Shown: positions 17,429-60,350, counted from the stretch's first letter. The stretch: DNA of 64,000 nt from a virus (IMGVR_UViG_3300025137_005412:88042-152041), one strand, 5' to 3'. Numbers and translations are program-made. Notes: generated from the sequence alone by a model not told the origin.

Positions 17429-17836
17429 ATGGCAATACAACAGACATTTCAAAGAAAAAGCAAATATAAAGATTTCGATCTAAACTTCACAAAACACCCT
17501 CTTACAAATGATTTAGCTGTAAAAAAAGGTGTATCATCTATTAATCAATCTGTGAAGAGTTTAATTCAGACCGCTTTCTATGAGAGACCATTTCAACCGA
17601 CTCTTGGTTCACAAGCTAGAAGCCTTTTGTTTGAAAATGCTGATGCGATAGTTATACAGAACATGAGAACATTGATCAAAGAGACAATTACAAATCATGA
17701 ACCAAGAGTAGCAGTGCGAAGTATTGCTATTCAAGATATGACAGATTCAAATGCTTATGCTATTGAATTAAGATATGAGATGCTTGATATTAAAACAGAT
17801 GAGACACTCAATATAGTTCTCGAGAGACTGAGGTAA
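17429..17836 (+). CDS. gp25: Baseplate wedge subunit gp25
   Basis: YKDFDLNF..HP, ERPFQP.LGS, HEPRV. Confidence 0.92.
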   Translation: MAIQQTFQRKSKYKDFDLNFTKHPLTNDLAVKKGVSSINQSVKSLIQTAFYERPFQPTLGSQARSLLFENADAIVIQNMRTLIKETITNHEPRVAVRSIAIQDMTDSNAYAIELRYEMLDIKTDETLNIVLERLR

Positions 17837-17838
17837 AA

Positions 17839-19653
17839 ATGTCCGACAATAGACCAATTATAGCCAATCCTGATTTCAATGATATAAAACAGGATATCAT
17901 TACACATTTCAAAGCAGATTCTAATTTTGCTGACTATGATTTCAAAGGTTCAGCTATGAATACTATCATAGATATTCTAGCTTATAACACACACTATAAT
18001 AATCTTGCTGCAAACTATCTTGTAAATGAATCATTCTTAGATACAGCACTCATGAGAAATAATATCATTTCAATTTCTAAGATGTTGAACTATACACCAA
18101 GATCTAAAGCTGCAGCTAAAGCAAGTTTAACATTAAGAATTCCAAAAGTAAATGGTAATAACGTTTACACAATTCCAGCTGGAAGTTTATTTACCGCTTC
18201 TGATGGTTCAACAACATATAACTTCTACACATTAAGAAACTACAGTGTTCAATATGATGCAACTGATGCGAACGGTGTCACAAGAGATGTGATTATAGAA
18301 ATTTGTGAAGGTGATCAAATTACACAAAGATTTGCAGCTACAGCTGAACACACAAGTTTTCCTAAATTTGAATTAGGTAATAAAGGAATAGACACAAAAA
18401 CAATTAGTGTATCAGTAAATGGAGAGACTTGGACACCAGTCACAAACGATACACAAGGAACCACTGGAGTTTCAAACCTTAGTACAATATATTTTATTGA
18501 AGAAACAAGAAATTTACAACATAGTATTATGTTTGGTAATGGTGTATTAGGTAAGAAGCTAGAAGTTGGTGATGAAATATTAGCAACATACATCGTAACG
18601 AATGGTGCAGAAGCAAATGGAATTAATAATTTTTCAATTAAGATTTCTGGAAGATCTGATATAACAACAGTATTGACAGTGCCAGCTGATGGTGGTGGTG
18701 ATATAGAAACTATAAGAGAAATTAAAGACAACGCACCTAACTGGTTCCAAGCACAATTCAGAGCCGTAACAGAAAATGATTATAAAGCTATATTAAAAAA
18801 AGAGTATGCTGATATTCAAGCTTTGAATGTTTATGGTGGTGAAACTGTAGGTAAACCTGGTAAAGTTTTCTTTTCAATTAAACCAAAGTCTGGTGACAAA
18901 TTAACAGAACAAGCAAAACTTACAATCACTAGAGATATATTATCTAAATTTAATCTTGTGACTGTCACACCAACTGTTGTAGATCCACTTATAACAAGAA
19001 TTATTGTTAAAACAGTTTTACAATTTGACAACTCTAAGATTACTACAAGTTCTGAAGTTTTAGAATCTAAAGTATTAGCATTGTATAATGTATTGAACTC
19101 ATCTTACATTGGTGATTTTATGGAATCATTCTCAGTGTCAAGATTAATGGAAGAAATTTTAAAGCTAGATAATTCAATCACAGCTGTAAATCCTAGAATC
19201 AATTTAAGATTTAATGTAAATGCAAAGAATTCGCTTTTAGATAATTCATCATTCACATTTAATAATAGATTACATACTGAACCTTATGCTGGTGAAGCCT
19301 CTGTAGGTGGTGTATTAAATTCAACATTATTTAAAAGATCTGGAAGAACTAACTTCTCCAAATTTGTAGATGATGGTAAAGGAATATTAAGACTTGTTGA
19401 TGTAATTGAAGGTTCAAACATTATTGTTAACACATCAGCAGGAACAATAAATTATGAAACAGGTGAAGTTAATGTCACTGATTTTGATCCAGAAGATGGA
19501 ACAATTGGTTTTATCGTTATACCAGAATCTTTTGATGTTCAGGTACAAGGTAATTATCTTTTACAAATATCAACTGGAGATTCAACAGTAAGAGCGATTG
19601 ATAAGAATGATACAGCTTCACTCAACTTATTTAATGTATCGAGAGCAAGTTAA
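17839..19653 (+). CDS. gp6: Baseplate wedge subunit gp6
   Basis: DYDFKGS...DILAYNTHY, NESFLDTA, YTPRS, FGNGVLG, RAVTENDY, GTINYETG. Confidence 0.93.
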   Translation: MSDNRPIIANPDFNDIKQDIITHFKADSNFADYDFKGSAMNTIIDILAYNTHYNNLAANYLVNESFLDTALMRNNIISISKMLNYTPRSKAAAKASLTLRIPKVNGNNVYTIPAGSLFTASDGSTTYNFYTLRNYSVQYDATDANGVTRDVIIEICEGDQITQRFAATAEHTSFPKFELGNKGIDTKTISVSVNGETWTPVTNDTQGTTGVSNLSTIYFIEETRNLQHSIMFGNGVLGKKLEVGDEILATYIVTNGAEANGINNFSIKISGRSDITTVLTVPADGGGDIETIREIKDNAPNWFQAQFRAVTENDYKAILKKEYADIQALNVYGGETVGKPGKVFFSIKPKSGDKLTEQAKLTITRDILSKFNLVTVTPTVVDPLITRIIVKTVLQFDNSKITTSSEVLESKVLALYNVLNSSYIGDFMESFSVSRLMEEILKLDNSITAVNPRINLRFNVNAKNSLLDNSSFTFNNRLHTEPYAGEASVGGVLNSTLFKRSGRTNFSKFVDDGKGILRLVDVIEGSNIIVNTSAGTINYETGEVNVTDFDPEDGTIGFIVIPESFDVQVQGNYLLQISTGDSTVRAIDKNDTASLNLFNVSRAS

Positions 19654-22600
19654 TGGCCAAACATATACTGCCAATAGTCAAAACGCAGTTGCCGGAGTTC
19701 ATAAGATCTGAACATCCGCAATTTGAGCTGTTCATCAGTGCATATTACGAGTATCTAGAAAAACAAACTGATAGTGATTCAACATCAGCTTTAAATCTTT
19801 TTAAGTCTGCACCCAATGCGGGTGCAATAATAAACAATGCAGAAGAATATCGTGATGTACATACTACACTTAACGAGTTCAAAGAGTACTTTCAAAAACA
19901 ATTAACTCCATTTGTAATAACAGGAAACAAAGTCACAGATGGAATAGTATTCCAAAAAGCTAGAGATGTTTACTTATCTAAAGGTTCTCCAAATTCATTT
20001 AAGCTTTTATTTAGAATATTGTTTGGTCAAGAGATTGATCTCTTCGAACCTAAAAATCAAATTCTTATTGCTTCAGAATCATTGTATACATCATTTGCAC
20101 AGATAAAAGCTGAAGTAATACAAAATGAATCTAATCTTGGTGACTTTAATTATGAGCTTGCAACAATACGTTTAGACACTGACATAAATGATAGTGATGC
20201 ATCTAAGAATATACTCACTGTTCTTGATGGTACATTTACTGGTGTTACGAAAAACAATAGAACAGTACTTACATTATATCTTACAAAAAATCCAGATTCA
20301 GATATGAATGGATTACTTGTTCCAAGAAGAGAAGTACTTTTAAGAGATTCACAAGACCCCACAAAAGAAGTAAAAGTAAGATTATTAAATCACTTAGGAA
20401 ATGTAAGTGTCACAGACGGTGGTTCTGGATTTAGAATTGGTGATAAGTTCTTTGTAAGAGATACCACAACAACTATACCAGTTCAGGTGACGAAAGTTGC
20501 ATCAGGCGAAATTGATAGATTAATGATAAGATCAAGAGGTACTAACTACAGAGTTGGTGATACAATTGAATTTCTTGATACCGCCTCAGGTGCAGGTGCT
20601 TTAGCATTCATTACCGGTGTTGATCAACAAGGTACAGTCACACAAATAGATGGTACAAATGTAAGATTAGGTGAAGCAAATACTGGTTATCTTTCAGAAG
20701 AATTTGAACCTGTAGTAGTTCCTATTATTCAAAAAGGTCAATACACACATATTCCTGTACCATTTATAAGAACAAATACTGGTTCTGGTTTAGTAGTAAG
20801 TGGTCTATCATCTCAGGTTGGAAAGATATTAGAGGTATCTACTCCACAAACTGGATTCTTTGACTCAGATAGTTTTGGTATTCCAACACTTGAAAGTCCA
20901 TTAGGTATCAGAATTACAAATGAAGAATCAATTGATGTAGGTAATGTTATTGAGTTTCAACATTTTACACCAGATTCAGAAGGTGGTTCATTAAGACACG
21001 ATAGTGAAGTCTTTACAATTAATTTAACAATACAAGATTCTGATGGTATTACAAATGATAGTGATACATTATATTGGTCTGGTATAGAAGAACTTGGAAC
21101 AAACGTATTGTATGATAGCACTTCTGGTGGTTCTAATTATGCTCCTGGAAGTATGGCTGATTCAGATGATATAATTGTTTCAAGCAACTTTGACAAACAC
21201 CGATTTGATGGTAGAAGTAATGGTCTATTTAGTACTCAATGGGTTCAAGGTATAGTAGAACCTAAACTTTTAGGTGGCAATAGAACTAAAGATGCACGTC
21301 ATTATGTAAACTATTCATCTAACAGAAAGTATTTCTTTAGAAGTGGTTTAAAATTTAAGATTATAAGAATGCCTGTTGCATGGGATTCTGAAAATTACAA
21401 TTGGAAAATTAGACAAATAAAATATTATGACTCTGATGGAGATAGTGATTTTATAGAAAGATGGAAAGCAAATCCTGAATTTGATATTCAAGGAATTACA
21501 CCAACTTATTATTCTTGGGAATTAGGTCAACCAGGTCCTAATAAATGGGCTAGATGGGTAAGTGCTTGGGCAGCAATTGATGGTGGTCACTTAAATGAAT
21601 CAGATGGTAAGTTTACAACAACTGCAACCGAAGGAAATGCAGCATGGAAAAATATTCAACACCAAACTACAAGAGTTGCAGGTAAACCTGGACAAAGATA
21701 TGGATATCCAGTAAACAGATCAGATTCTGATGAATATCAATTAGGTCAATTTAGTAATAGTACAAATGCTATTGATTCAGTTGACATGCCACTAGATAAG
21801 TATAAGAATGCTGGTATGAGATTAGGCGATCCAGAAAGAACTACACATCCAGTAGATTCTGACAACGGTGGTGGTGGTACTAGTGGTATTAATATATGGT
21901 ACGATCATGCGGATAACGCTAGTGAAGCTGGTGATTTAATTAAGTTGCAAACAGAACCAGCATCAAGACATGCAGTACAAGCTTTTCCAATTAAGATCGA
22001 TGACCCAAGACTTTACAGATTAGATAAGTTTCATTTAGATCAATTAAAACAATCTGCAGTAAATGATTCTGAAAACACATTAACATATAGTACAGAGATT
22101 TTTGTATCTGCAGACTTATCAGATTCTGATGGTTCAGGTAAGGGAACATCAAAAACTATTGGTGAATTTGTTAGTACTGGATATGGTGGTGTAGTTGCTA
22201 CTAAATCAGCTGACGGTACAAGCTTTACAATTTCTAAGGCAGATAGCGAGCAGGTTTTATCTACATTGAACAAACCAATGAATTTCCCTAATGATAGTGA
22301 AATACTAGTTTTTGATAGATTACCTCACGCATTGTTAAGAGTTATTAAAGTAAACCCTTCTGACGGTACTAAACTATCACAAGAAACATTCCCAGTTTCA
22401 AATGCTATAGTTCAATATGAATCACCAATTTTGAAAACAGGTTTTCCTCTTACTTCAATAACAGAAAAAACATTTCTTAACGAATCAGGTTTTTTAAGTT
22501 CTATTTCTGGTGGTATATTAAGAGATAACTATACAGTATCAGAATTCTCATACATCATTCAAACAGAATTATCTATGAATAAATGGAGAGGACCAATCAA

Positions 22601-23900
22601 AGATACTTTACATCCTGCTGGAATGTATATGTTTGGTGAATTAAATGTTGATACGAGTGCTGAAATCAATACAGGAAATTCTGCATTGCCACACACAGAC
22701 ATTGGTACTGAAGCATCTTCACTTACATTTGATGCAGATGATGATTATTATAATGATAAGCAAACTGAAGGTATTGCTGTTTTTTCAGATAGTATTTCTT
22801 TTGCTTCAAATCCATTTAATGTTGTATCATTAACAAACGATGCATCAGGAACTTTCCTTACCGCAGATTATACTCAGAGAAATGTTGAATCATCAATACA
22901 ATCACAAAGAGGAAATGCTTTCTTTGATTATGAACCAGTTGGTCTCGTACATAAAGTATGGACAGTGTTTGACTCTGAAGGTCATTACAATCATGTAAGA
23001 GGAGCAATTGATTCAGACTCTGATTTGAAAGCTAAATTTGGAATGTACTTCACACCAAGACAAGGTGATGGTAAACTAATATTAGGTTCAGGCTTTGATT
23101 CAGATTTCTTTAAGAGAGATATTACAACACAAGTTCATGATAGTGAAATTACTCGTGACTCAAAAGTTAATAATGTAAAAACTCATTATGTGCCTAGTGA
23201 ATTTCATGGAGCCAAAAGATATGGTAATATAGAATTAATTGGTATATCACAAGTCAAATATGAAGATTTTGAGTTATTTAGAGTTTATGATTCAGAAATT
23301 CCAAAAGATATTTTTCAAAGATGGGATGCTGAAACTGCCGTAACATTTGAAAAAATTGATTACAGTAGAATCAAAGATAGTGATAAAGATGTTGATACGT
23401 TCAACACTCCATTAGAAAGAACAAGAGAAATAAGAATAAGTAAAGCTGTTGACTTTAACACAGCATTAAGACTTAATAAAGATTTGAACTTCACAGTAAA
23501 TGGAACAACTTACTATGACTTAGAAGCATTTGAACAAAAGTATCATAACTTCAATGCTTTAAGAGATTCTGAGTACAATGAAGGTTGGAGCATACCAGGA
23601 AAATTCACAGCATTAGGTAATATTAGACAGACTGCACCTGACTCAGAATATGATTCAGATATGATTGTAAGAGATGATCAAGCACGTAAGCGATTTGCTA
23701 TTGAAAAAGAAAGAGGATATTCAGATACTAAATCACCTCGAACAGCAAGAGCTTTTGGAAATTATTTAGGTGGATCTAATACTATAATCGTAAGACCTAC
23801 TTATCCTGCGGGTGCTGGAATAAATAATACAGCACAACTATTAGGAACAGTTTCTGACTCAGATTACAAAGAGAATCTAGAATTTAAGAGAAAAAATTAA
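19653..23900 (+). CDS. gp7: Baseplate wedge initiator (gp7-like), expanded
   Basis: QLPEFIR...F..AYYEYLE, YLSKGS..SFKLLFRILFG, FSYII...W...K..LHPAGM..FG. Lies between gp6 and gp8. ~29 DS[D/E]. Confidence 0.75.
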   Translation: MAKHILPIVKTQLPEFIRSEHPQFELFISAYYEYLEKQTDSDSTSALNLFKSAPNAGAIINNAEEYRDVHTTLNEFKEYFQKQLTPFVITGNKVTDGIVFQKARDVYLSKGSPNSFKLLFRILFGQEIDLFEPKNQILIASESLYTSFAQIKAEVIQNESNLGDFNYELATIRLDTDINDSDASKNILTVLDGTFTGVTKNNRTVLTLYLTKNPDSDMNGLLVPRREVLLRDSQDPTKEVKVRLLNHLGNVSVTDGGSGFRIGDKFFVRDTTTTIPVQVTKVASGEIDRLMIRSRGTNYRVGDTIEFLDTASGAGALAFITGVDQQGTVTQIDGTNVRLGEANTGYLSEEFEPVVVPIIQKGQYTHIPVPFIRTNTGSGLVVSGLSSQVGKILEVSTPQTGFFDSDSFGIPTLESPLGIRITNEESIDVGNVIEFQHFTPDSEGGSLRHDSEVFTINLTIQDSDGITNDSDTLYWSGIEELGTNVLYDSTSGGSNYAPGSMADSDDIIVSSNFDKHRFDGRSNGLFSTQWVQGIVEPKLLGGNRTKDARHYVNYSSNRKYFFRSGLKFKIIRMPVAWDSENYNWKIRQIKYYDSDGDSDFIERWKANPEFDIQGITPTYYSWELGQPGPNKWARWVSAWAAIDGGHLNESDGKFTTTATEGNAAWKNIQHQTTRVAGKPGQRYGYPVNRSDSDEYQLGQFSNSTNAIDSVDMPLDKYKNAGMRLGDPERTTHPVDSDNGGGGTSGINIWYDHADNASEAGDLIKLQTEPASRHAVQAFPIKIDDPRLYRLDKFHLDQLKQSAVNDSENTLTYSTEIFVSADLSDSDGSGKGTSKTIGEFVSTGYGGVVATKSADGTSFTISKADSEQVLSTLNKPMNFPNDSEILVFDRLPHALLRVIKVNPSDGTKLSQETFPVSNAIVQYESPILKTGFPLTSITEKTFLNESGFLSSISGGILRDNYTVSEFSYIIQTELSMNKWRGPIKDTLHPAGMYMFGELNVDTSAEINTGNSALPHTDIGTEASSLTFDADDDYYNDKQTEGIAVFSDSISFASNPFNVVSLTNDASGTFLTADYTQRNVESSIQSQRGNAFFDYEPVGLVHKVWTVFDSEGHYNHVRGAIDSDSDLKAKFGMYFTPRQGDGKLILGSGFDSDFFKRDITTQVHDSEITRDSKVNNVKTHYVPSEFHGAKRYGNIELIGISQVKYEDFELFRVYDSEIPKDIFQRWDAETAVTFEKIDYSRIKDSDKDVDTFNTPLERTREIRISKAVDFNTALRLNKDLNFTVNGTTYYDLEAFEQKYHNFNALRDSEYNEGWSIPGKFTALGNIRQTAPDSEYDSDMIVRDDQARKRFAIEKERGYSDTKSPRTARAFGNYLGGSNTIIVRPTYPAGAGINNTAQLLGTVSDSDYKENLEFKRKN

Positions 23901-25312
23901 TGGCAACTATAGGTAAAGTCACTAACGAATTAAAAACACTTTTAACTAAGTCAACACGTGATGAGATTCGTGATACAACGAATGATGACTCGTTTTATGC
24001 GTTTATTGCCTATACAGATTCCGAAGACTATCCCTTCAGTGACTCAGACGCTTCTGAGGCTGTAACGGACTCAGATCTAATAGGAATCTATAAGAATATG
24101 GTCACAATGCACCGAGTACTGCCTGGAGGTGTTTCTCGAGTGATTAAGAGAAAGAACTGGATAACTAATAGTAGTTATGTCGGTTGGAACTCAGATACTT
24201 CAAATGATAGTGACTATTATGTAATGTCTACAGAGATTGTGCAAGGTGTTCCAAGACAAAATGTTTATAAGTGTTTGAATGCTCCATCTAAAGTATCATC
24301 CACTGTAGCACCAACTGGTTCATCTTCATTACCATTTAAAACTTCTGATAATTATTGGTGGCAGTATATGTACACAATTACAAATTCAGATGCTATTTTA
24401 TTTATGACATCTGCATTTATGCCAATACCAGAAAGAGTTGATGTAGCTGAATCCGTTAACGTAACGGCAGGTACCGCAAGATATGACTTATTGCAAGTAC
24501 AAAATAATGCAATTAAAGGTAGTGTCTTTAATGTAAGAATAAAACATGGTCCTAATGAAAGACCAGACTCTGATAAATTAAGAGGATTTACAAACAAACT
24601 TGTTGTAAACATTAAAGGTAAAGATGGAGTAGGTAATACACCTACACAAACATTTAAAGCAACTGCAACTAGAGATAGTGAACAGTCAGCTGTATGGAAA
24701 TTTCAAGTACAACAATATGGTATAGGTTATACTGCACTTCCTTATGCTTGTGATTCTGAGAATGATTCAGAAATTAAATGTTTCAGATTAGATCTTGCTC
24801 CTGGACTTGGACATGGTGCTGATGCTGGTGATGAACTACAAGCGAGAGATGTTATGATGACTTCTCGTGTAATTCCACTAGATAATGGATTTTCAAAATT
24901 AGCAAGTGGTGAATTCAGTATGATTGGATTAATTAAGAATCCTATTGATACAGCTACAAATAGAATTGGAACACAAAATTATTATACAGTTGCTAAAAAA
25001 ATAACATGTGATAACGCTGCATTATTCAAAATCAATGATGTGTTCTATAAACAAGGTGATTCAGATACAGCTGGTAAAGTTGTTTCGATAGATAATAAAG
25101 ATGTTTTTTATATTAATGTTGGAAAATTAAGAAACAATTTTGCAGACAGTGATCAGATTATTTCCACTACTCACAATAATGTAATTCAGAAAGCTAAGTC
25201 AGCTGATGTTATCTTTAATAGTGGTCAATTCTTATCGGTTGATTATTTACCAACAGCATTAGAAAGATCACAAGATCAGATAGAATCATTGAATATTATC
25301 TTGAAATTGTAA
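23900..25312 (+). CDS. gp8: Baseplate wedge subunit gp8
   Basis: VIKRKNW, VYKCLN, DNYWWQYMYTI, FMPIP, GHGAD...EL, GLIKNP, RSQDQIE. Confidence 0.85.
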   Translation: MATIGKVTNELKTLLTKSTRDEIRDTTNDDSFYAFIAYTDSEDYPFSDSDASEAVTDSDLIGIYKNMVTMHRVLPGGVSRVIKRKNWITNSSYVGWNSDTSNDSDYYVMSTEIVQGVPRQNVYKCLNAPSKVSSTVAPTGSSSLPFKTSDNYWWQYMYTITNSDAILFMTSAFMPIPERVDVAESVNVTAGTARYDLLQVQNNAIKGSVFNVRIKHGPNERPDSDKLRGFTNKLVVNIKGKDGVGNTPTQTFKATATRDSEQSAVWKFQVQQYGIGYTALPYACDSENDSEIKCFRLDLAPGLGHGADAGDELQARDVMMTSRVIPLDNGFSKLASGEFSMIGLIKNPIDTATNRIGTQNYYTVAKKITCDNAALFKINDVFYKQGDSDTAGKVVSIDNKDVFYINVGKLRNNFADSDQIISTTHNNVIQKAKSADVIFNSGQFLSVDYLPTALERSQDQIESLNIILKL

Positions 25313-25340: not shown

Positions 25341-28300
25341 ATGTCAACAATTAACTTAAATGTATCGCCGTATTTTGACGATTTTGATGAGAAGAAGGAT
25401 TACCTTCGTGTCTTATTTAGACCTGGTTTTGCGGTACAGGCAAGAGAGTTAACACAACTACAGACTATAGCACAAAAGCAAGTTTCAAGACAAGGAAATC
25501 ATATATTTAAAGATGGTTCTCGAGTCACTGAAGGTAATGTAAATATAAACTTCAATACACACAACATGAACCTTATATCAGGTTCTGGTAATATTAATTT
25601 CCCATTAAGTGGTGCTCTCACAGGTTCAGTTGAAGCTACACTAGATAATTTTTCTGAAACAATAATTTCTAACCAGGACAACACTGTAAAAGCTAGAGTT
25701 TTAAAAACTCCTACTGGTTCTGTACTAGCAAATAAAACAGGTAATATTTACTTCACATATATAACAAGTAAAAAATTCACAGATTCAGATCAAGGATACA
25801 TATACGCAAGAGCTGAAGATAATCCAGAACTTACTGTCACATACGTAAATGTCTTTTCAAAAGTATCAGAAGCTACAATGGCAACTATACTTTCAGGTAT
25901 TTACTATATAGATGGTTTCTTTGCAAGAATACAAGAACAAAATATCGTTGTATCATCTACAACTCAAAAGCCAACAGCAGCTATAGGTTTCTCAATTACA
26001 TCAAAAGATATATCTGCAAATGATGATGCATCACTCTTTGATAATGCACGTGGTTCTACAAACGAAGGTGCACCAGGTGCGAATAGATTACAAAACCTAA
26101 TTAGTGTATTAATAAAGAGTACATTAGATCAAGGTTCTGATCCAACATTCTACAAGCAAGTAGAGATTAAAGATGGTGTAATTTTAGGAGATACTGAAAA
26201 GACTCCTACTGGATCAAGAGTGACTCCAAATCCTATGTACAATGGTCTTGGCGATACAATGGCAAGAAGAAGAAAAGAAGAATCAGGTTCTTATGCAGTT
26301 AATAAATTCATTCCAAAAATTCAACAACAATCTTATGAAGATTCAGATAAGTTTGCAGTTTCATTCAGCAAAGGTCTAGCTTATATTAATGGATATAGAC
26401 AAGAAACATTTGCAGATGAATTAATATATTTAGATCGTAATACAGAAGCTAAAAAAGAAACAAACCACAAAATTCCTATTCTAGGAGCACCATACGTAGA
26501 AGTAAGAAATGTAAACAGTGGTACAATGTCTGGTATGTTAACTGCTGATGCTAATGGTATTGGTGCATTCACTAACAAACTAGCGCTAAAAGATTCTGAT
26601 GGAAATACTATTGGATTTGCTAGATCATATGGTTATCAAGCAACTAACGGTGAAACTAATGGTAGAGTATATCTTACTGATGTTAAGATGTTCCAACATG
26701 TAAGATTTGGACCATCTGGTACATATGATTCAGACACAAGTCATTTTTGGAGAAACTCCTTAATTGCTGGTGAACAAGTCACTGCAACTTTAAATGGTAA
26801 AGTTCAGACTGGTGATGTTGTAAAATTGTATGCACAACACAAGAACGATTCTGACTGGACAGATATAAACTTCTCACCTAATGGTCTAAACAGACTTGGT
26901 GGTGTATCATCTTATAAGACTACTGGTGTACTACTCACAAATTCAAATGCACAATTTCAAAAAGGTGCAAAGATTGAAGGTTCTATTGATAGAACTGTGG
27001 TATTATCTCCAAGAATTGAAAATGCACGTCAATTTAAGTTTGCAGAAGTAAGAGAAGTAAGAGGTTCAACAAACGATTCTGAAGGTGTATCATTCAAGGC
27101 ATTTACTGATTGGACACCTGGTGAAGGTGCTAAAATGAAAAATGTTTCAGGTGCATTATTTGGTGGTACCGGAAAAACATTTAAAACACTACGTTCTGGT
27201 ACAGTTCCATTTGATAATGACTTTGATGTTCTTTATAAAGCACCACCTACAATTTCTTCAACAGACGGTGGATTAGCAGTCACACCAGACTTTTCAGATT
27301 CTCAATGGTCAACACACTTTAGAAATGGTGACTATAAGAAAACGAGAATTGATGATGCTGTAGAGATTACAAAAGAATTAAAATATGGTGTTTTAAAAAT
27401 AAGAAATACATCAGATATTACAAGATCGTCTTCAGTGAATTCCTCTTGGTCAGCACTAGATAGAAAGATTAACTTATTCTATCCAGACATTTACAGAGTT
27501 TATAAGATTGTTCATGGTTCTACGAACAATTCATTTGGTACATCAACTACAGAACCTAACGCAAGCTTTGATAGAATTAAAGTAAACATTTCTGGTGGTG
27601 CAACTATACCACAAGGTTCACTAATAATTGGTAAAACTTCCAAGACACGTGCTAGAGTAGCACTTTCAAATACAATTGCAACTGGACAGACTACATTATC
27701 AGGTTCAACTGGTTATCATATCTCAATGTCAGGTACTGGTGCTCAAGATTTACTTGAAGTGTGCTTTGAAAAAGGTCAAGCTTTCACTGCAGGTGAACAG
27801 TTAAAAATAAAAGTTCCTGCTAAAGAAGATGCTATATCTTCAGAAATTACATTTACAGAAGTAAACACAAAAAAACCAGGTTCAGATATTACAGCTAACT
27901 ATTTACTTGATGATGGACAAAGAGTTGATTCATATCATATTGGTTCTGTTATCAGAAAAACTGGTGTACCAGCACCAGCTAATGGTGATATTTTAATATT
28001 CTATTCATACTTTGATGCTAATCCATTTCAATCATTCTATTATGGTGTAGATTCATATTCAGGTGATGGTTTCTATGATGTAGACCCAAGATATTATGGT
28101 AAACCAACTGAAATTAAAGAATATGAAGCATACACTGGTCTTAATTTAAGAAATGTTATTGACTTTAGATTTAGACAAAGATTAATAAGTGGTTATGCAA
28201 CAACTAACAACCCACTATCATTTTTATATAGAGAGTTTGAAAACACTGGTGTTCATGTTATTCCAGATGGTCAATTCTCTACAGATGCAGAATTCTTTAC

Positions 28301-31613: not shown

Positions 31614-31792
31614 TGCATAAACGTGATTTAAAAAGAGATCCTAAGAATGGTGCTCTATTAAATACTAATAGACAAGATGTTATTGAGTACAAAAAGAAAA
31701 TTGCTGAAGAACATGAAAATGAAAAAAGATTAACAACACTAGAAAAAAAGATGGATAAAATTATAAACATATTGGAGAAGCTTGATGGCTAA
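31613..31792 (+). CDS. 59-aa coiled-coil protein MHKRDLKRDPKNGALLN... (not in ORF track)
   Basis: Translated by hand. TAATG-coupled to the VrlC-like gene and overlaps the next start. Confidence 0.7.
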   Translation: MHKRDLKRDPKNGALLNTNRQDVIEYKKKIAEEHENEKRLTTLEKKMDKIINILEKLDG

Positions 31793-48239: not shown

Positions 48240-48834
48240 GCCAATCTCCTATGTAAGTATAATTTTTAATGACCATATTTGCTGGCCATTTTCTATTTCC
48301 TGTAAGAAGCTTAAATCCAGTCCATTTAGTTTCAGTATTCTTATCTACAAATTCTTCAATACCAATAACCCATTTACCATCACCTGCATTATTAAGTAAT
48401 TTTCTTTTAGCTTTTTGAATTATTGATTTATTAGTAAGTGCATCCAATGAGGTTTCTACATCTGAGAATGCAAATCCCTGTTTAATACCGTTATCTAACA
48501 TCCAAGAAAAATGTTTTCTCCAGATATCTTCTGTGATAGGCATGATTCGTATACCTAAATTTTCTTTTGATACATGAATTGTAGTTGTACATCTTGGCAT
48601 GAGCTTCCATTTGTATACTCCACATATACATAATAGCTCATCTTTATCTACATATCCCCATAAGAAATATGGTTCATTAGGATCAAAGTACTTATCAATA
48701 TACTCATCACTCCATATATCCTCAAAATCTATGGAGTCTTTATCAATACCGCTGTGTGTTTTTCTTAATGATAAAAGTCTCTTTACTTGATCTTTCCATT
48801 TATCATCTAAAATCTTAACTTTTTCCAAACTCAT
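48220..48834 (-). CDS. GNAT-fold acyltransferase-like protein
   Basis: LWGYVDKDELL.I.G...W..MP pattern; resembles the adjacent gene. Confidence 0.4.
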   Translation of the reverse strand: MSLEKVKILDDKWKDQVKRLLSLRKTHSGIDKDSIDFEDIWSDEYIDKYFDPNEPYFLWGYVDKDELLCICGVYKWKLMPRCTTTIHVSKENLGIRIMPITEDIWRKHFSWMLDNGIKQGFAFSDVETSLDALTNKSIIQKAKRKLLNNAGDGKWVIGIEEFVDKNTETKWTGFKLLTGNRKWPANMVIKNYTYIGDWLENQDN

Positions 48835-49498
48835 TATCTTTTTCCTGTAAAGGTTTATATTCTACTTTCAGATATTCTTTAAATCTTTCATGTTGTATAT
48901 GAGGTTTGATCTTAGCAGACTTTATTGCTAGATCAGTTGGATGGGTACGATAACCCATTATAACTTTTTCGTAATCAAATTTTGGCTCTTCACCAGCAGG
49001 AATTACATTCTCTATAAACACATTATATCTTTTGAAAGTGCTACTATAATTATACCAAAATTGCTCTCTTCTATTCCAACCTTTTGTACTTGTGACCCAG
49101 TAGAATTGTGTATATCCATATTGCTCAGCATCTAGTACTGCCAAATCAAGCAGTTCAGAAGTCATTTTGGCAGCCTCTCGGTAGCTTTTTAGACTCGGAC
49201 ATGTTATCATATTGCCAACATACCAAGATGGCATCCTCGATGTCGAGAAGCGTTGTGTCAGTATAACCATAAGCTCATTATTAGAGAAATAACCAAAGGC
49301 TCTACCTTTATTAACTTCATTAGGTAAACCATTGACCCATTTGAAATTCATATGTTCTTCAAGGAACAAGTTATATTGCTCATCTACATTTTCATTAGTT
49401 CTAGCTTGTATTGGATTTTTAGACAGTTGAATGTATCTACGCATCATAAGATCGTAGATTTGATCCTTGTCAAGTGTTGTAAGTTCTCGCATAGTCAT
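48815..49498 (-). CDS. GNAT-fold acyltransferase-like protein
   Basis: MRELT..D, AFGYF.N.EL, MPSWY, LLDLAV..AE..GY..FY. Confidence 0.45.
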
Positions 49499-49767: not shown

Positions 49768-49771
49768 ATAT

Positions 49772-54030: not shown

Positions 54031-54034
54031 ACTA

Positions 54035-54060: not shown

Positions 54061-54064
54061 ATAC

Positions 54065-54433: not shown

Positions 54434-56278
54434 ATGAGTCACATTGCTCAAAAGGAGTACGACTCCAAAATTCACAGTGGGTGGAAACGTTTCGGTGATT
54501 TCTATTTTCAGAACAAAAAAGCTCTACTAAATTATCTTGCTAGTAAAAGAGTATCTAAAAACTCACCAACAACAGAAACTCATCCTCAATTATTTGTAAA
54601 TCAACAAGGTGTTAGTCACTATATTGGTAATCCTAATATTAAGTCTGGTTTCCAAGATTTAGAATACACAAAAGAAGAATTAAAAGAATATAAGAAGTGT
54701 ATGGATAATCCTGTTTACTTTGCAGAGACATACATGAAAATTATGTCAGTTGACTTTGGTGAAATACCATTCACACTATATGACTTTCAACGAGACATGA
54801 TTAAAAGCTTTAGAGATAACAGATTTAATATTGCTAAACTACCAAGACAGTGTGGTAAATCTACAACTAGTGTTGCTTTTATACTTTGGTTCTTATTGTT
54901 TAATCCTGGTAAAACTGTAGGTATACTAGCAAACAAAGGTGAATTAGCTCAAGAAATTCTAGGTAGGCTACAATTAGCTTATGAGAACTTACCATATTGG
55001 TTGCAACAAGGTGTGCTAACCTGGAATAAAAGATCTATATCCCTTGAAAATGGTAGTAAAGTAGTTGCTACATCTTCATCAGCTTCTGCTGCTCGAGGAA
55101 TGTCATTCTCTTTATTATTCCTAGATGAGTTTGCATTCGTACCACCAAATGATGCTGAAGATTTCTTTAGATCTGTTTACCCTACAATTTCTTCAGGTAC
55201 AGATACAAAAATGATTGTAGTATCTACACCAAAAGGTATGAACCATTTCTATAAGATGTGGACAGAAGCAACATCAAAGAGATCAAAATTTGTGCCTACC
55301 GAGATAAACTGGTGGGATGTTCCTGGTAGGAATGAAGATTGGAAAGAGGAACAAATAGCAAATACTTCTGAAGATCAATTCAGACAAGAGTTTGAATGCC
55401 AATTTATTGGTTCAAGTAATACTCTTATATCGCCTACAAAATTACAGACCATGAGTTATATCGATCCTATTAAAACAATGGAAGGTATAGACTATCATGA
55501 GGAACCTAAACCTGGACATAAATATATGCTCGTGTGTGATACTGCACGAGGAATCAGATTAGATTATTCAGCATTTGTTATATTTGATATAACTGCTTTA
55601 CCTTATAAAGTAGTAGCTAAATTTAGATCAAATGAAATATCACCAATGATTTTACCACAATTCTTATCAAATGTAGGTAAATACTATAATGAGTCTTTCA
55701 TACTTGTAGAAGCAAATGATTTAGGTGGTCAGATATTAAATGGTCTACACCATGAATTAGAATATGAAAATCTATTAAAATCTGTATCAAAAGGACGATC
55801 AGGTAATCAATTAGGTTCTGGACCAAACTCTAAATTAGGTGTCACAACATCACATGCAGTAAAAACTAATGGTTGCTCTAATATAAAGAGTCTTATTGAG
55901 GGTGATAAAGTAGTTGTAGAAGACTATGACATATATGTAGAACTTACAACTTTTGTTAGAAAAGGTGAGAATACTCAGGTATTTGCAGCAGAACCAGGAA
56001 CAAATGATGATCTTGTTATGTGTATGGTTCTATTTGGATGGGCTACCGGTTGTGATCATTGGAAAGAATTAACCGAATTAGATGCTTCGAAAATGATGTA
56101 CAGAGATAAAATTGCTGAAGAAGGTGATGAAATGCCTGTTGGATGGTTATCAGAGAATGATACATATAACCCACAAGTAGATAATTCAGGTGATTTATGG
56201 TCACCAGTTAATACCGAGGAAGGTGAAAAACCTGATTGGTACGATAGAGTATATCAGAACTTTGACAGAGATTTTTAA
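54434..56278 (+). CDS. gp17: Terminase large subunit gp17
   Basis: YIGNPNIK, Walker A PRQCGKST, Walker B LFLDEFAF, STPKG.NHFY, FRQEFEC, DYSAF, DDLVM. Confidence 0.97.
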   Translation: MSHIAQKEYDSKIHSGWKRFGDFYFQNKKALLNYLASKRVSKNSPTTETHPQLFVNQQGVSHYIGNPNIKSGFQDLEYTKEELKEYKKCMDNPVYFAETYMKIMSVDFGEIPFTLYDFQRDMIKSFRDNRFNIAKLPRQCGKSTTSVAFILWFLLFNPGKTVGILANKGELAQEILGRLQLAYENLPYWLQQGVLTWNKRSISLENGSKVVATSSSASAARGMSFSLLFLDEFAFVPPNDAEDFFRSVYPTISSGTDTKMIVVSTPKGMNHFYKMWTEATSKRSKFVPTEINWWDVPGRNEDWKEEQIANTSEDQFRQEFECQFIGSSNTLISPTKLQTMSYIDPIKTMEGIDYHEEPKPGHKYMLVCDTARGIRLDYSAFVIFDITALPYKVVAKFRSNEISPMILPQFLSNVGKYYNESFILVEANDLGGQILNGLHHELEYENLLKSVSKGRSGNQLGSGPNSKLGVTTSHAVKTNGCSNIKSLIEGDKVVVEDYDIYVELTTFVRKGENTQVFAAEPGTNDDLVMCMVLFGWATGCDHWKELTELDASKMMYRDKIAEEGDEMPVGWLSENDTYNPQVDNSGDLWSPVNTEEGEKPDWYDRVYQNFDRDF

Positions 56279-56343: not shown

Positions 56344-56351
56344 TATAAATA
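56344..56351 (+). promoter_or_regulatory. Late promoter for gp18
   Basis: Perfect TATAAATA, then AAGGAG SD. A second AATAAATA lies at 56290-56297. Confidence 0.7.
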
Positions 56352-56383: not shown

Positions 56384-58177
56384 ATGGCATTTCTAGTAAG
56401 CCCAGGAGTACAGGTCAAAGAAACAGACCTTACAAATATTATACCGGCAGTTGCAACGTCAATTGGTGGTTTTGCAGGTCGATTCGAATGGGGACCAGTT
56501 AATGAAGTCACCCTAGTTTCATCAGAACAAAATCTAATTAATAACTTTGGATACCCACGTAAAGGTACCAATGCAGGATACGTGAGAGACGATTGGTTCT
56601 CTGCTGCTAACTTCTTAGGTTATGCTAATGCAATAAAAATAGTAAGAGCCACAGCAACTGGTGCTCTTAACGCAAGCATGGGTGATTCAGACAATGGTGT
56701 CGATTCAGATGCTAATATTCAAAACGAAACAGATTTCTCATCAGACATATCAGGATTAACTTCAACAGTTTATGCTAGATTCCCTGGTGCTTTAGGTAAT
56801 TCAATTGGAGTAGCTATTGTAGATAGTGCTCTTGATTCAGATACCTTCCAAACTAAAAAATTATTTGGTTCAGTTAAACTAAAAGATTACTTTGATGCAA
56901 AACCTGGAACATCTCCATGGGCTGCTACTTATGACTCTGATTTAAGAGACGAAGTTCACGTAATGGTTTATACTTTAAATGACTTACCAACTGGTACAAC
57001 TCACGAAGTACTAGAAACATATCCTTTCCTATCAAAAGCTGCAAACAGTAAAGATGGAAACAATGCTAATAACTACTTTGTTAATAAGATTAACGAAGCT
57101 TCTGAATGGGTTTACTTTGTAAATAACTTTGGAACAACTGCTACTGGTGCTGGAGGTGCTTCATACGCTCCTGGTGCAACAATAACAAGTGTTGCTAGAG
57201 GATCATTTGCTACATTGAAAAGAACATTTGACTCAGATTTACCATCTGATACTTCTGGAACTCCAGTATATCAAGCACATCTAAAAAATGGTAATGATGG
57301 TTCAGCGGTAAGTGATGCATCATTAATGTCTGCTTATGACAAATTATTAGATGCTGAAACAGAAGATGTAAACTTATTAATTACTGGAGAGCATTCTTCA
57401 ACTGTAGGTAAATATGTAATGGCTGGTGCTAAAGAAAGAAAAGATGCTATGGCATTCATGTCACCATCAGAAACAGTATCAACTACTAATCCTACAGCAA
57501 ACAAAGTTAAAAATTACTTCTCAGATTGGAATTCAAACTCATACGGAGTATTTGATTCTGGTTGGAAACGTCAATATGATAGATATAATGACGAATTCTT
57601 TAATATGCCTTTAAATCCAGACACTGCTGGTGTGACTGCAAGAGCAGAATTCACCAACGATGCATGGTTCTCACCTGCTGGATTAAACAGAGGATTCTTA
57701 AGAGATGTAGTAAAATTACACTTCAATCCAAGTCAAGCCGAAAGAGATGAGCTTTACAAATCAAGAATAAACCCAGTAGTGACTTTCAAAGGTCAAGGTA
57801 CTTTATTATTTGGTGATAAAACAGCATTATCTAAACCTTCAGCATTTGATAGAATCAATGTAAGAAGATTATTCATTGTCTTAGAAAAAGCAATTGCAAC
57901 AGCTGCTAAATTCCAACTGTTTGAATTTAATGATGACTTTACAAGAGCAAACTTTGTTGCTGCAGTAGAGCCTTTCCTTGCAGATGTAAAATCACGAAGA
58001 GGTATGACAGACTTTAAAGTTGTCTGTGATGCATCAAACAATACACCAGCGGTCATTGATGGAAACAGATTTGTAGCTGATGTATATGTCAAACCAAACA
58101 GATCAATAAACTTCATTACTCTTAACTTTGTAGCAGTACGAAGCGGAGTATCTTTTGAAGAGGTAGCAGGAGCATAA
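56384..58177 (+). CDS. gp18: Tail sheath protein gp18
   Basis: SPGVQVKETDLT, WGP, WFSPAGLNRG, GDKT..SAFDRINVRRLF, KPNRSINFI.LNF. Confidence 0.97.
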   Translation: MAFLVSPGVQVKETDLTNIIPAVATSIGGFAGRFEWGPVNEVTLVSSEQNLINNFGYPRKGTNAGYVRDDWFSAANFLGYANAIKIVRATATGALNASMGDSDNGVDSDANIQNETDFSSDISGLTSTVYARFPGALGNSIGVAIVDSALDSDTFQTKKLFGSVKLKDYFDAKPGTSPWAATYDSDLRDEVHVMVYTLNDLPTGTTHEVLETYPFLSKAANSKDGNNANNYFVNKINEASEWVYFVNNFGTTATGAGGASYAPGATITSVARGSFATLKRTFDSDLPSDTSGTPVYQAHLKNGNDGSAVSDASLMSAYDKLLDAETEDVNLLITGEHSSTVGKYVMAGAKERKDAMAFMSPSETVSTTNPTANKVKNYFSDWNSNSYGVFDSGWKRQYDRYNDEFFNMPLNPDTAGVTARAEFTNDAWFSPAGLNRGFLRDVVKLHFNPSQAERDELYKSRINPVVTFKGQGTLLFGDKTALSKPSAFDRINVRRLFIVLEKAIATAAKFQLFEFNDDFTRANFVAAVEPFLADVKSRRGMTDFKVVCDASNNTPAVIDGNRFVADVYVKPNRSINFITLNFVAVRSGVSFEEVAGA

Positions 58178-58762: not shown

Positions 58763-58785
58763 GGTATTGGTATAATACTAATACC
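58763..58785 (+). terminator. Stem-loop between gp19 and gp20
   Basis: GGTATTGGT...ACTAATACC imperfect hairpin with one G-U pair. Confidence 0.3.
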
Positions 58786-58820
58786 CATTATAATAATGAA
58801 AACAAAGTGTTAGGAGCAGC

Positions 58821-60350
58821 ATGGCTGAGAGAAAAGAAGATTTATTTGGCTTTGAATTAGTATCACCAGAAAAATCACCCAAATTACCAAGCCCAGTACC
58901 GCAACCGTTAGATGACGGAACAGAATTACCTGTTGGAGGCAGAATCGGCTATACTTACGAGCAAGACGATAAAGCTAGAACAGAACATGCACTTATTTCC
59001 ACTTATAGAGAGATTAGCTTTTATCCAGAAGCAGATGCTGCTATTGATGATATAGTAAATGAAGCTTTTGTTGTTGAACATGAAAAAGCTCCAGTATCTA
59101 TTAGATTAGATAATCTTAATATGGATGATAGAATAAAAGAATCCATAAGAACACATTTCTCAAAAGCATTAGAACTACTTAACTTTCAAAAGAAATCTTA
59201 TGACATATTCAGAAACTGGTATGTTGATGGTAGATTATTCTATCAAATAATAATTGATCCAAAAAATGCTAAAGATGGTATACAAGAATTAAGACCAGTA
59301 GATGCTGTTAAGATGAAGAGAGTAATAAAGCCTGTTTATTCTAAAAATATAAAAACTGGTATGCCATTCCTTGAAGAAGTTGATGAGCATTTTGAATTCT
59401 CACCTGATGGTGATATGGGTGCAGCAGTTAAATTATCTAAAGACTCAATAGTATTCTGTCCATCTGGAATGGTAGATAGAAACAAAGGAATGATTATAGG
59501 TTATTTAGATAAGGCAATAAAAGCTTTCAATAACTTACGTTCTATGGAAGATAGTCTTATTGTATACAGAATTGCTAGAGCACCTGAAAGAAGAATATTC
59601 TATGTAGATGTTGGTAATTTACCGAAGATTAAAGCTGAACAATATCTTAGAGATATGCAAAATAGATTTAGAAATAAGATTGATTATGATCCGGTGACTG
59701 GTCATATTAGAGATTCAAGAAAATTCATGTCAATCTTAGAAGATTTCTGGCTACCAAGAAGAGATGGTAAAGCTACAGAAATTACTACACTTCCAGGTGG
59801 TCAAAACCTTGGTGATCTTGAAGATGTACAATACTTTAAAAACAAATTATATGAAGCATTAAACGTACCATTAACAAGAATAAATGGTGCTGATGCTTCT
59901 TTCCAAATTGGTAGAGCTTCAGATATTTCAAGAGATGAATTGAAATTTGGTAAGTTTGTTGCAAGATTAAAGAAACAATTTGGTGAACTATTCAATGAGA
60001 TCTTAAGAGTTCAATTATCTTTGGCTGGTGTTTGTACCGCTAAAGAGTTTGATGACATGAGAACTCATATTACTTATGACTTTATTGAAGATACACACTT
60101 TAAAGAATTGAAAGATGTAGAACTACTAACAGACAGAATGAATCTATTAAGAGATGCTACTGAATATGTTGGTAAATATTTCTCAATTGAATACGTGCGA
60201 AAAGTTATTCTAGCCCAATCAGAAGATGATATTTCTAGAATTGACCGTGAGATTATGAGTGAGATCGATAATGATCAAATAAATACTGAAGATGACCAAA
60301 TGGACATGTACGAATCACGGGATATAAAAAATGGCACTACCAAAGAGTAA
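58821..60350 (+). CDS. gp20: Portal protein gp20
   Basis: AIDDIVNEA, WYVDGR, YRIARAPERRIFYVDVGNLPK.KAEQY, EDFWLPRR, LPGGQNLG. Confidence 0.97.
   Translation: MAERKEDLFGFELVSPEKSPKLPSPVPQPLDDGTELPVGGRIGYTYEQDDKARTEHALISTYREISFYPEADAAIDDIVNEAFVVEHEKAPVSIRLDNLNMDDRIKESIRTHFSKALELLNFQKKSYDIFRNWYVDGRLFYQIIIDPKNAKDGIQELRPVDAVKMKRVIKPVYSKNIKTGMPFLEEVDEHFEFSPDGDMGAAVKLSKDSIVFCPSGMVDRNKGMIIGYLDKAIKAFNNLRSMEDSLIVYRIARAPERRIFYVDVGNLPKIKAEQYLRDMQNRFRNKIDYDPVTGHIRDSRKFMSILEDFWLPRRDGKATEITTLPGGQNLGDLEDVQYFKNKLYEALNVPLTRINGADASFQIGRASDISRDELKFGKFVARLKKQFGELFNEILRVQLSLAGVCTAKEFDDMRTHITYDFIEDTHFKELKDVELLTDRMNLLRDATEYVGKYFSIEYVRKVILAQSEDDISRIDREIMSEIDNDQINTEDDQMDMYESRDIKNGTTKE

Follow-up and report, generated by a model that had tools for sequence, protein, structure and literature searches.

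A three-residue motif, Asp-Ser-Asp/Glu (DS[D/E]), is about twenty-fold in excess on the outward-facing proteins of the tail, baseplate, neck and fibres in an uncultured marine T4-like myovirus and its clade. Eighteen ORFs, representing 18 unrelated protein families, carry 181 copies, where composition predicts 9.6. We consider the chances about even that DS[D/E] serves as a sequon at which serine receives a late, phage-encoded modification, most probably O-glycosylation, a reading drawn from residue preferences, gene content and comparison of relatives.

Genomic context

The window analysed here is a 64-kb stretch of a 152-kb viral contig (G000), which is about 85% complete; gene coordinates are window positions unless prefixed G000. 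Genes were named according to PHROG matches and BLAST against annotated HTVC008M genes. PHROG matches revealed a T4-like (Kyanoviridae-related) myovirus morphogenesis module, with syntenic gp25-gp6-gp7-gp8 and gp13/14/15 genes, and the window order TerS-TerL-gp18-gp19-gp20-gp21-gp22 is likewise syntenic with T4-like phages. Sheath identity to the Pelagibacter phages HTVC008M and Mosig is 47-48%, and the sheath model can be structurally aligned with T4 gp18 over 473 residues (Z 31.9). A 20-kb piece of the region, compared by megablast with 50,697 phage records, gave zero matches. Cultured members of the clade are absent from this collection, where the top sheath match is 48% identical. In the literature, we found no description of DSD or D-S-D/E as a tag or a sequon of phage virions.

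Enrichment and residue rules of the motif

When tripeptides were scanned without bias in the 15 rich ORFs (9214 aa), DSD was found 131 times versus 5.9 expected (z=52) and DSE 38 times versus 3.0 expected (z=20). Near-miss tripeptides are not enriched (DTD, n=3; ESD, n=1), and DT[D/E] shows no excess (5 versus 8.3 expected). D or E comes next in 169 of 207 DS dipeptides (82%), and Ser is the middle residue in 131 of 166 DxD tripeptides, with Thr, Asn, Gly and Ala almost never found there. Position -1 thus accepts Asp and not Glu, position +1 takes either, and Ser is not replaced by Thr. We found no wider sequence context flanking the motif in G000. Overlapping DSDS[D/E] pairs number only 12 in the window, the motifs being otherwise isolated. 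The demand for Ser rather than Thr, and for Asp rather than Glu at -1, suggests enzyme-like specificity.

The excess might in principle stem from composition or mutation bias, or from repeats or a signal in the DNA, a possibility to which we attach practically negligible weight. Asp and Ser content is indeed raised in the rich proteins, but the expectation of 9.6 derived from composition falls far below the 181 copies observed. Ser codons within the motif (TCA, TCT, AGT, TCC and AGC) match the same-ORF background (chi-square p=0.07), and the 27-nt contexts are distinct in 181 of 181 cases. The motif thus draws on every Ser codon family and no context recurs, so selection acts at the protein level. 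Moreover, neighbouring genes of the same operons lack the motif altogether, and sites are kept across orthologues of 55-93% identity. The tripeptide scan, the conservation of sheath sites and the codon and context data together rule out such an artefact; the enrichment is not a DNA feature. The absence of a regional mutation bias, argued earlier by the sequence-only reading from switches within single operons, is borne out by the codon and context figures.

The motif could also be an intrinsic surface element that acts without any modification, its two carboxylates, on either side of a small polar residue, binding Ca2+, Mg2+ or Fe3+ or acidifying the tail surface. The particle would thereby be stabilised or stick less non-specifically in seawater. 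DxD is a classic arrangement of divalent-cation ligands, and the motif is located on the surface. However, metal binding explains neither the Ser at the middle position nor the exclusion of Glu before Ser together with its acceptance after it. We regard this explanation as unlikely; further observations bearing on it are given below.

Distribution of the motif in the particle

A series of motif-rich genes lies on the plus strand. It starts with the gp7-like peripheral wedge protein (19653..23900; 1415 aa), which has 29 motifs versus 1.44 expected, and continues with the gp8-like wedge protein (23900..25312; 470 aa, phrog_438; 10 motifs), a VrlC-like structural protein (25341..31613; 2090 aa, phrog_358; 10), a 281-aa ORF (31782..32627; 5), the gp14-like neck protein, or head closure Hc2 (32637..33737; phrog_460; 8), the gp15-like tail sheath stabiliser (33737..34603; 5), a protein with a gp9/gp10-like N-terminal domain (34619..36043; PF07880; 10) and a putative fibre protein (36047..38215; 722 aa; 23 versus 0.96 expected). 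The same strand encodes the gp18 tail sheath (56384..58177; 5 motifs), the gp13-like neck/head-tail adaptor (60331..61323; phrog_211; 4) and, between the gp13 and gp21 genes, a clade-specific 126-aa ORF (62277..62657; 2 versus 0.05 expected). The sequence-only reading gave the coordinates 17429-60350. The motif-rich set reaches beyond them, to a minus-strand group at 10306-17372 and to two ORFs upstream of the window. The former consists of an ORF without a family match (10306..10881; 191 aa; 2 motifs), a putative fibre or virion protein, also without one (10889..12031; 380 aa; 8 versus 0.32 expected), and two putative fibre proteins (12902..15013, 703 aa, 18 versus 0.86 expected; 15027..17372, 781 aa, 30 versus 1.19 expected), the second sharing 28% identity with a fibre paralogue in contig G002. 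The upstream ORFs (G000 36231-36881 and G000 41968-42933) have 5 motifs each and are surrounded by RNase H, superoxide dismutase and DUF genes, with no glycan genes among them.

Motifs are absent from the gp25-like (17429-17836, plus strand; 135 aa) and gp6-like (17839-19653, plus strand; 604 aa) inner baseplate wedge proteins, which form a phrog_261/phrog_219 block, from the gp48-like protein (857-1972), a 398-aa tail protein (2621-3817), TerS, the large terminase TerL (54434..56278, plus strand), the tail tube gp19 (58182-58748, plus strand), the portal gp20 (58821-60350, plus strand) and gp21 (62657-63307). The gp53-like (1972-2628) and gp5-like (3784-5121) proteins have one motif each. None is present in any ORF of the island at 39927-54066 or in a conserved Ser-rich protein of 326 aa encoded where the fibre genes meet the island (38224-39204). 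The zero counts listed by the sequence-only reading (gp6, gp25, gp48, the gp27-like hub, gp19, gp20, terminase, gp21 and island enzymes), its single copies in gp5 and gp53 and its many copies in gp7, gp8, gp18 and gp13 were all reproduced on recount.

T4 structures provide the inner versus peripheral or neck placement of the tail proteins (PMC3004832). The peripheral/neck set (gp7, gp8, gp9/10-like, gp13, gp14-like, gp15 and gp18) has 71 motifs in 3940 aa, compared with 2 in 3693 aa of the core, hub, tube and portal set (gp25, gp6, gp53, gp48, gp5, gp19, gp20 and others; binomial p=3e-18). As judged by alignment and modelling, the split is also found within single proteins, the sheath being the example. 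All five sheath motifs (positions 101-285) fall within residues 99-306, the outer insertion domains, bounded on either side by the segments aligned with T4 gp18 residues 3-93 and 346-655. By alignment, this stretch is equivalent to gp18 domains I and II, which in T4 are exposed to solution (PMC3004832). In the AF2 model, all five motifs are in coil or at a helix N-cap, and two of them (pLDDT <50) are in loops predicted to be disordered, unlike metal sites. In the VrlC-like protein, all ten motifs are in residues 148-579 and 1721-1946, with none in the 1141-aa core (p=4e-4); in the gp15-like protein, all five are at residues 224-274, past the conserved 1-210 block.

The head behaves differently from the tail. 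The major capsid protein is the most exposed head protein, and it has 0, 0 and 1 motifs in the clade members G001, G015 and G003, respectively. Therefore, the rule concerns the tail, neck and fibre exterior rather than exposure as such. The earlier proposal that the motif follows position in the particle stands for the tail and not for the capsid, and exposure as a general rule is contradicted.

Absence of the motif does mark inner virion parts, as had been suggested, but it is also the default in all non-virion proteins. In the non-rich ORFs, DS[D/E] falls short of expectation, with 8 copies in G000 where 21.8 are expected (P=6.5e-4) and 4 in G001 where 10.0 are expected. For comparison, the counts outside the clade are 18 versus 26.4 expected in HTVC008M and 87 versus 96 in non-clade loci. 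Non-virion proteins avoid the motif, and metal binding leaves this avoidance unexplained.

Clade restriction and conservation

The motif trait is found in all relatives whose sheath identity is at least 55%, and across different proteins. With sheath identity of 47% or less, the trait is absent in about 58 contigs, and it is also absent in HTVC008M and Mosig. In these comparisons, the trait is specific to one clade and not general to T4-like particles. Metal binding does not account for its absence in sister phages of the same waters. Four of the five sheath sites are kept through the clade, down to 55% identity; non-clade sheaths have G/S/T loops at the corresponding sites. At the 64% identity tier, 37 of 60 motif sites are conserved, compared with 20-44% identity for other tripeptides, and motif counts are maintained despite positional turnover. 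Conservation at these levels indicates that the motif is kept by purifying selection.

Because the lineage restriction extends across different proteins, a trans-acting, lineage-specific cause is needed. Such a partner might be a non-enzymatic reader docking onto the motif (a phage decoration or cement protein, a chaperone of assembly or some component of the host surface touched by the tail), and the conserved Ser-rich 326-aa protein at the island boundary would speak for this option. However, a context-free epitope of three residues is very short for protein-protein recognition, and hundreds of sites per particle, spread over more than 15 proteins and subject to positional turnover, fit a coat better. 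The 326-aa protein is also present in G010, a contig with weak enrichment only. We therefore find docking quite improbable.

Candidate modifying enzymes

Late-promoter operons of glycosyltransferase-like and other enzyme genes adjoin the fibre genes. Positioned between the fibre and terminase genes, on the minus strand, are a four-gene cassette of small glycosyltransferase-like proteins (39927..42671) and an enzyme operon (43103..49498). The cassette comprises a predicted GT-A enzyme with a GT-A fold and an invariant DxD (39927-40595), a paralogue (40571-41353), a third gene (41350-41997) and a gene with a glycosyltransferase match (41988-42671; phrog_1962). The enzyme operon includes an Asp/Asn beta-hydroxylase-family cupin (43103-43870; PF05118, E=3e-8) and an SDR (44554-45288). 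A perfect T4 late promoter, TATAAATA, is found 18 nt upstream of the first cassette gene (42689-42696), 11 nt upstream of the enzyme operon (49509-49516) and before the sheath gene (56344-56351). Further products of G000 are a GDP-mannose 4,6-dehydratase, a DegT aminotransferase, a GT8-like protein (G000 5634-6302) and a member of the DAHP_synth_1 family, to which the Kdo-8-phosphate synthase KdsA belongs.

The GT-A gene is the best-conserved gene of the island (53% identity between G000 and G001) and has 698 metagenomic homologues; the metagenome contigs carrying it have no structural genes within reach. Together with the cassette, it is also present in the T4-like contigs G006, G007 and G010 (24-51% identity; 44-51% for the GT-A homologues), where sheaths have 0-1 motifs. 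G006 and G007 show no motif enrichment, and G010 only a weak one. The GT-A protein was tested as the writer, but it and its cassette are thus shared with phages that lack the motif and are no predictor of it.

Several genes are restricted to the clade: the GT-B-like paralogues and the genes for the GT8-like, DAHP_synth_1/KdsA-family and PF05118 proteins. They co-occur with the motif within one lineage only and thus do not provide independent evidence. The PF05118 protein is present in G000, G001, G003, G004 and G005 and was not found in HTVC008M, G006, G007 and G010. The GT-B-like paralogues (G000 105-2693) are candidate glycosyltransferases that have no Pfam match above the cut-off and whose profile has no sequence relative in PDB. 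In the Atlas feature search, clusters neighbouring them are named 'capsule polysaccharide biosynthesis', so a capsule/Kdo-type identity is a lead only. Their assignment as KpsC/KpsS-type Kdo transferases was rejected, as PF05159 (Capsule_synth) is unmatched in the genome at E<=0.1. Relatives of these paralogues, found with a single protein as query, fall within the same clade in cases with structural genes in reach (G015), so their co-occurrence with the motif is not independent. PF00534 (GT4, Glycos_transf_1) has no match at E<=0.1 in the 152-kb contig (about 85% complete), a search in which the positive control was matched in 14 of 14 genomes. Pkinase, CotH kinase, GT4 and KdsB-type (PF02348) proteins were likewise not found in G000. 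That the writer is not pinned down among the candidate genes is a point in favour of the intrinsic surface element considered above.

The sequon arguments for O-glycosylation hold equally for a non-sugar modification, such as Asp beta-hydroxylation, or a phosphate or phosphodiester on Ser. The PF05118 cupin might produce a metal-chelating hydroxy-Asp, and its restriction to the clade is in keeping with such a role; alternatively, glycerol phosphate might be attached to Ser, and a cytidylyltransferase-like gene adjoins one of the motif-rich ORFs upstream of the window. However, PF05118 also covers lipid and sugar hydroxylases, so that a protein substrate is not implied, and the strict need for Ser fits better if Ser itself is modified. 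The neighbourhood of the cytidylyltransferase-like gene otherwise consists of replication and miscellaneous genes, and the missing Pkinase and CotH kinase also weigh against phosphorylation. Overall, a non-sugar modification seems distinctly unlikely.

Proposed role of the motif

Returning to O-glycosylation of a sequon, we infer the adduct, its sugar nature and the existence of a writer from the pattern described above. The tag would have arisen in one marine T4-like myovirus clade and then been kept by selection on the solvent-facing sheath, peripheral baseplate, neck and fibres. A phage enzyme, made late and in the cytoplasm alongside the structural proteins, would recognise the tripeptide in exposed loops and modify the Ser hydroxyl, most probably by O-glycosylation. 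Other phage glycosyltransferases may lengthen the glycan, giving a dense coat on the tail exterior. Two further considerations oppose this scheme. The sugar genes of the phage could have another function, in DNA hypermodification or in altering the host surface, and the motif-poor, exposed capsid protein is not predicted by a simple model in which everything exposed is coated. The full proposal, that this widespread marine clade coats its tail, baseplate, neck and fibre exterior with a phage-made glycan or other serine adduct at a strict cytoplasmic O-sequon, is tentative, its chances being in our view somewhat short of even.

Modified serines would mean that an abundant group of ocean phages has tails that are not bare protein but bear hundreds of identical adducts per particle. 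Adsorption, host range, protease resistance, stickiness and decay in seawater would be affected, as would the way in which the many 'auxiliary' sugar genes of marine phages are interpreted. It would be a case of sequon-directed O-modification outside Bacteroidota, encoded by a virus. A cytoplasmic three-residue sequon, if real, would be a tool for site-specific protein glycoengineering, and the motif-over-chance signature offers a simple computational route to further such systems in viromes.

Comparison with known systems

The acceptor of the staphylococcal SdgA/SdgB enzymes, which O-GlcNAcylate serine-aspartate repeats, is Ser within a minimal Asp-Ser-Asp, and their modification, according to a 2013 paper, reportedly protects surface proteins. 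G000 shares this tripeptide (DSD 131, DSE 38), its modification being only predicted. The cytoplasmic Sdg enzymes are of the GT-B/GT4 type, whereas G000 has no PF00534 match. Their substrates have long tandem SD repeats, whereas the G000 motifs are isolated tripeptides in loops of folded proteins. SdgB O-GlcNAcylates even a bare DSD peptide (PMC8561734).

The tail, baseplate and neck proteins of tailed phages assemble in the cytoplasm. This separates G000 from the general O-glycosylation of Bacteroidota, in which exported proteins are the targets and glycans are transferred to them en bloc in the periplasm. The two are alike in having a three-residue sequon with D but not E before the hydroxy residue. 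In the Bacteroidota sequon, D-(S/T)-(A/I/L/V/M/T), Asp is obligatory at -1 and Glu is not tolerated, and motif excess over chance in the target protein class is the signature of the system (PMC12871550). The Bacteroidota sequon has a hydrophobic +1 residue and accepts Thr, whereas in G000 the +1 residue is D/E and Thr is excluded, so the motif does not conform to it.

Mycobacteriophages, whose virions are glycosylated by enzymes of the phage itself (Freeman et al. 2023, Cell Host Microbe), offer the third comparison. G000 resembles them in having glycosyltransferase genes in or beside the structural module and in a predicted cytoplasmic modification before or during assembly. In mycobacteriophages, capsid and tail-tube subunits are reportedly the glycosylated proteins. 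In contrast, the capsid (in clade relatives) and the tube are motif-poor here, and it is the sheath exterior, the baseplate, the neck and the fibres that are motif-rich. G000 further differs in its strict tripeptide and in representing a T4-like myovirus of marine Gram-negative hosts, one known from sequence alone.

The source contig and its phage

The source contig (G000) is a linear IMG/VR viral contig of 152,041 bp, about 85% complete, and the window is its final 64 kb (GC near 33%). The window holds a T4-like myovirus morphogenesis module with PHROG matches to gp25, gp6, gp7-, gp8-, gp14-, gp15- and gp9/10-like proteins, TerS, TerL, sheath, tube, portal, gp13 and gp21. Among cultured phages, the closest are the Pelagibacter phages HTVC008M and Mosig and the Methylophilales phage Melnitz, with sheath identity of only 46-48%. 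Megablast with 20 kb from the window returned no match among 50,697 phage records.

Residue rules of the motif

All per-protein counts of DS[D/E] (Asp-Ser-Asp/Glu) given in the sequence-only reading were reproduced on recount. The window contains 171 motifs spread over 16 ORFs, and the entire contig 181 in 18 ORFs (9.6 expected from composition). The motif-laden ('rich') ORFs reach past the region initially noticed, to four minus-strand ORFs at 10306-17372 (2, 8, 18 and 30 motifs) and to two ORFs upstream of the window (G000 36231-36881 and 41968-42933), each with five motifs and without a family match. The neighbourhood of the latter two includes RNase H, cytidylyltransferase-like, superoxide dismutase, DUF6433 and DUF6267 genes; a 302-aa ORF directly upstream of the second (G000 41060-41968) has no motifs.

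An unbiased count of every tripeptide in the rich ORFs places DSD first (131 versus 5.9 expected, z=52) and DSE third (38 versus 3.0, z=20); that such figures are an artefact is hardly conceivable. DTD (3), ESD (1), DSN, DAD and DGD are not enriched in these ORFs, in which D or E follows 82% of DS dipeptides. An unmodified metal-binding or acidic surface element seems unlikely. Serine codon usage inside the motif matches that elsewhere in these genes (chi-square p=0.07), the 27-nt contexts are all different (181/181), and positions -6 to +6 reveal no residue preference outside the tripeptide across the contig. The signal is therefore at the protein level and consists of the bare tripeptide.

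Position of the motif in the particle

In T4, gp7-gp11 lie at the baseplate periphery and gp6, gp25 and gp53 lie around the hub, beneath the sheath; domains I and II of gp18 (residues 88-345) are solution-exposed, and domains III and IV form the conserved sheath core, domain IV being the sheath interior (PMC3004832). It had been proposed that the motif separates outward-facing from inner proteins. For the tail this holds well: peripheral and neck homologues in the window carry 71 motifs in 3940 aa, versus 2 in 3693 aa of core, hub, tube and portal homologues (p=3e-18).

The same partition is seen within single proteins. Two blocks of the sheath, residues 4-98 and 307-596, align to T4 gp18 3-93 and 346-655, and all five sheath motifs (101, 107, 151, 184 and 283) fall inside the unaligned insertion that separates these blocks (p=0.005). 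In the AF2 model of the sheath (pLDDT 76; Z 31.9 against T4 gp18 over 473 residues) all five occupy coil or a helix N-cap, and for two the loop concerned has pLDDT below 50. The five gp15 motifs all lie outside the conserved 1-210 block, and a 2090-aa protein has a 1141-residue core free of motifs. That the motif is a docking site is a reading we regard as improbable.

The major capsid protein gene is absent from the source contig; in three motif-bearing relatives its product has 0 (G001), 0 (G015) and 1 (G003) motifs. Exposure by itself is therefore not the rule; the tag marks the outside of tail, neck and fibres and spares the head. Between gp13 and the prohead protease, a 126-aa clade-specific ORF (62277-62657, plus strand) carries two motifs; should its product belong to the inside of the head, the tail-exterior rule would not hold for it.

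Clade restriction and selection

Relatives were sampled as 80 IMG/VR loci found by sheath protein. The motif is enriched in every locus with a sheath at least 55% identical (hereafter, the clade) and enrichment is absent from every locus at 47% or below. Orthologous proteins of HTVC008M (138 of 147 kb examined) and Mosig also lack enrichment. Fibre proteins of the deepest clade members (G001, G002 and G015; sheath identity 55-60%) cannot be aligned with those of the window but are equally dense in motifs (19 in 620 aa, 17 in 591 aa, 17 in 432 aa). Thus the motif was gained many times in unrelated proteins of a single lineage, a pattern that requires a lineage-specific, trans-acting agent.

In these deepest members the motif recurs at regular places in repeated modules of paralogous fibre proteins, such as LDSDxxxFQxKI and DRDSDTIxIQxL (G002, L094/L095, 19976-21751 and neighbours; G001 28526-37984), and in G002 at least eight motif-rich ORFs of 550-730 aa stand in a row. 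Outside the clade, T4-like G010 (IMGVR_UViG_3300031519_000039; sheath 39-42% identical, one motif) encodes a 1095-aa protein (26051-29338) with 8 motifs versus 1.1 expected, some of them within a recurring SLDSER context, as well as a gp15 homologue (32977-33771) with 3 versus 0.16, which may represent weak or independent use of the tag.

Across clade sheaths, four of five sites persist over the whole range from 93% to 55% identity, with varying flanks and exchange of D and E at +1; at these columns, sheaths outside the clade have Gly/Ser/Thr loops. Seven proteins were matched to the 64%-identity tier: 37 of their 60 sites persist as DS[D/E], compared with 20-44% identity for other tripeptides, and gains balance losses, so that the count per protein stays similar. 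The other 173 ORFs of the contig hold 8 motifs versus 21.8 expected (Poisson P=6.5e-4) and the remaining ORFs of G001 4 versus 10.0; HTVC008M (18 versus 26.4) and non-clade loci (87 versus 96) are near expectation. Taken together, site conservation and this deficit indicate that the motif is favoured on some proteins and, more tentatively, that it is avoided on the remainder.

The enzyme island and candidate machinery

The fibre genes are separated from terminase by a 14-kb island whose genes lack the motif, and other clade members have enzyme genes at the same position. The first operon of the island, on the minus strand at 39927-42671, codes for small glycosyltransferase-like proteins. The 39927-40595 product has a confidently predicted GT-A fold (pLDDT 88.5) with an invariant DxD and resembles GT24/GT8 enzymes (UGGT catalytic domain, LgtC, GlyE); 41988-42671 matches a phage glycosyltransferase family. 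Metagenome-contig homologues of the island glycosyltransferase are found among radical-SAM, 2OG-oxygenase, DegT and carbamoyltransferase genes. Among the products of the second operon (43103-49498) are an SDR and a PF05118 Asp/Asn hydroxylase-family cupin. A non-sugar modification of the motif, hydroxy-Asp included, is quite unlikely. Elsewhere the contig encodes a GDP-mannose 4,6-dehydratase, a DegT aminotransferase, a GT8-like protein, three GT-B-like paralogues and a DAHP_synth_1 family protein (the family of Kdo-8-phosphate synthase KdsA).

The perfect T4 late promoter box (TATAAATA) is scarce, with 15 copies in the genome and 6 in the window versus 11.3 expected by chance. Five of these six are intergenic: 42689-42696(-), 42721-42728(+), 49509-49516(-), 56344-56351(+) and 61329-61336(+). 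Four lie 5-33 nt upstream of gene starts, namely those of both island operons (11-18 nt), the gene at 42733 and the sheath gene (33 nt). The island is therefore probably expressed alongside the structural proteins.

The GT-A cassette is not confined to the clade and does not predict the motif: homologues also occur in T4-like contigs with no enrichment (G006, G007) or at most weak enrichment (G010). Clade-restricted in our sample are the GT-B-like paralogues, the GT8-like gene, the DAHP_synth_1/KdsA-family gene, the PF05118 cupin and a 128-aa protein; as they co-occur with the motif inside one lineage only, this association is not independent evidence. A search of the contig found no kinase, GT4 or PF05159 genes.

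Inside the island, a gene for a 2x[4Fe-4S] ferredoxin stands immediately ahead of one from the fatty-acid-desaturase family (49498-50572, plus strand); this and a second desaturase-like paralogue (G000 85839-86630) are clade-restricted in the sample. A 326-aa protein (38224-39204, plus strand; 14.7% Ser, no DS[D/E], no family match) is kept at the fibre/island boundary in clade members (30-43% identity) and G010 (42%). A family of 380-500-aa proteins is expanded to three to seven copies inside relatives' enzyme islands (G001 5426-13220; G010 7528-17652; G000 47631-49148).

Interpretation and comparison with known systems

DS[D/E] would be a sequon recognised by an enzyme in the cytoplasm. Strict residue rules, lack of context and location in loops are the expected signature of such a sequon, as are conservation with turnover, clade restriction, avoidance elsewhere and adjoining late glycosyltransferase genes. 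On these sequence patterns, the chances that the motif serine is covalently modified, mostly by glycosylation, are about even.

By analogy, each element of sequon reading has a precedent in SdgB, the Bacteroidota O-sequon or mycobacteriophages. Mycobacteriophage virions are reportedly glycosylated by the phages' own transferases, although different proteins are marked here. SdgB glycosylates a bare DSD peptide (PMC8561734); the putative acceptor is alike, but no GT4 enzyme was found in the contig and the motifs do not form tandem repeats. The Bacteroidota O-sequon requires Asp, and does not tolerate Glu, ahead of the hydroxy residue (PMC12871550), which is the preference seen before serine here, whereas the +1 residue differs and the targets would be cytoplasmic.
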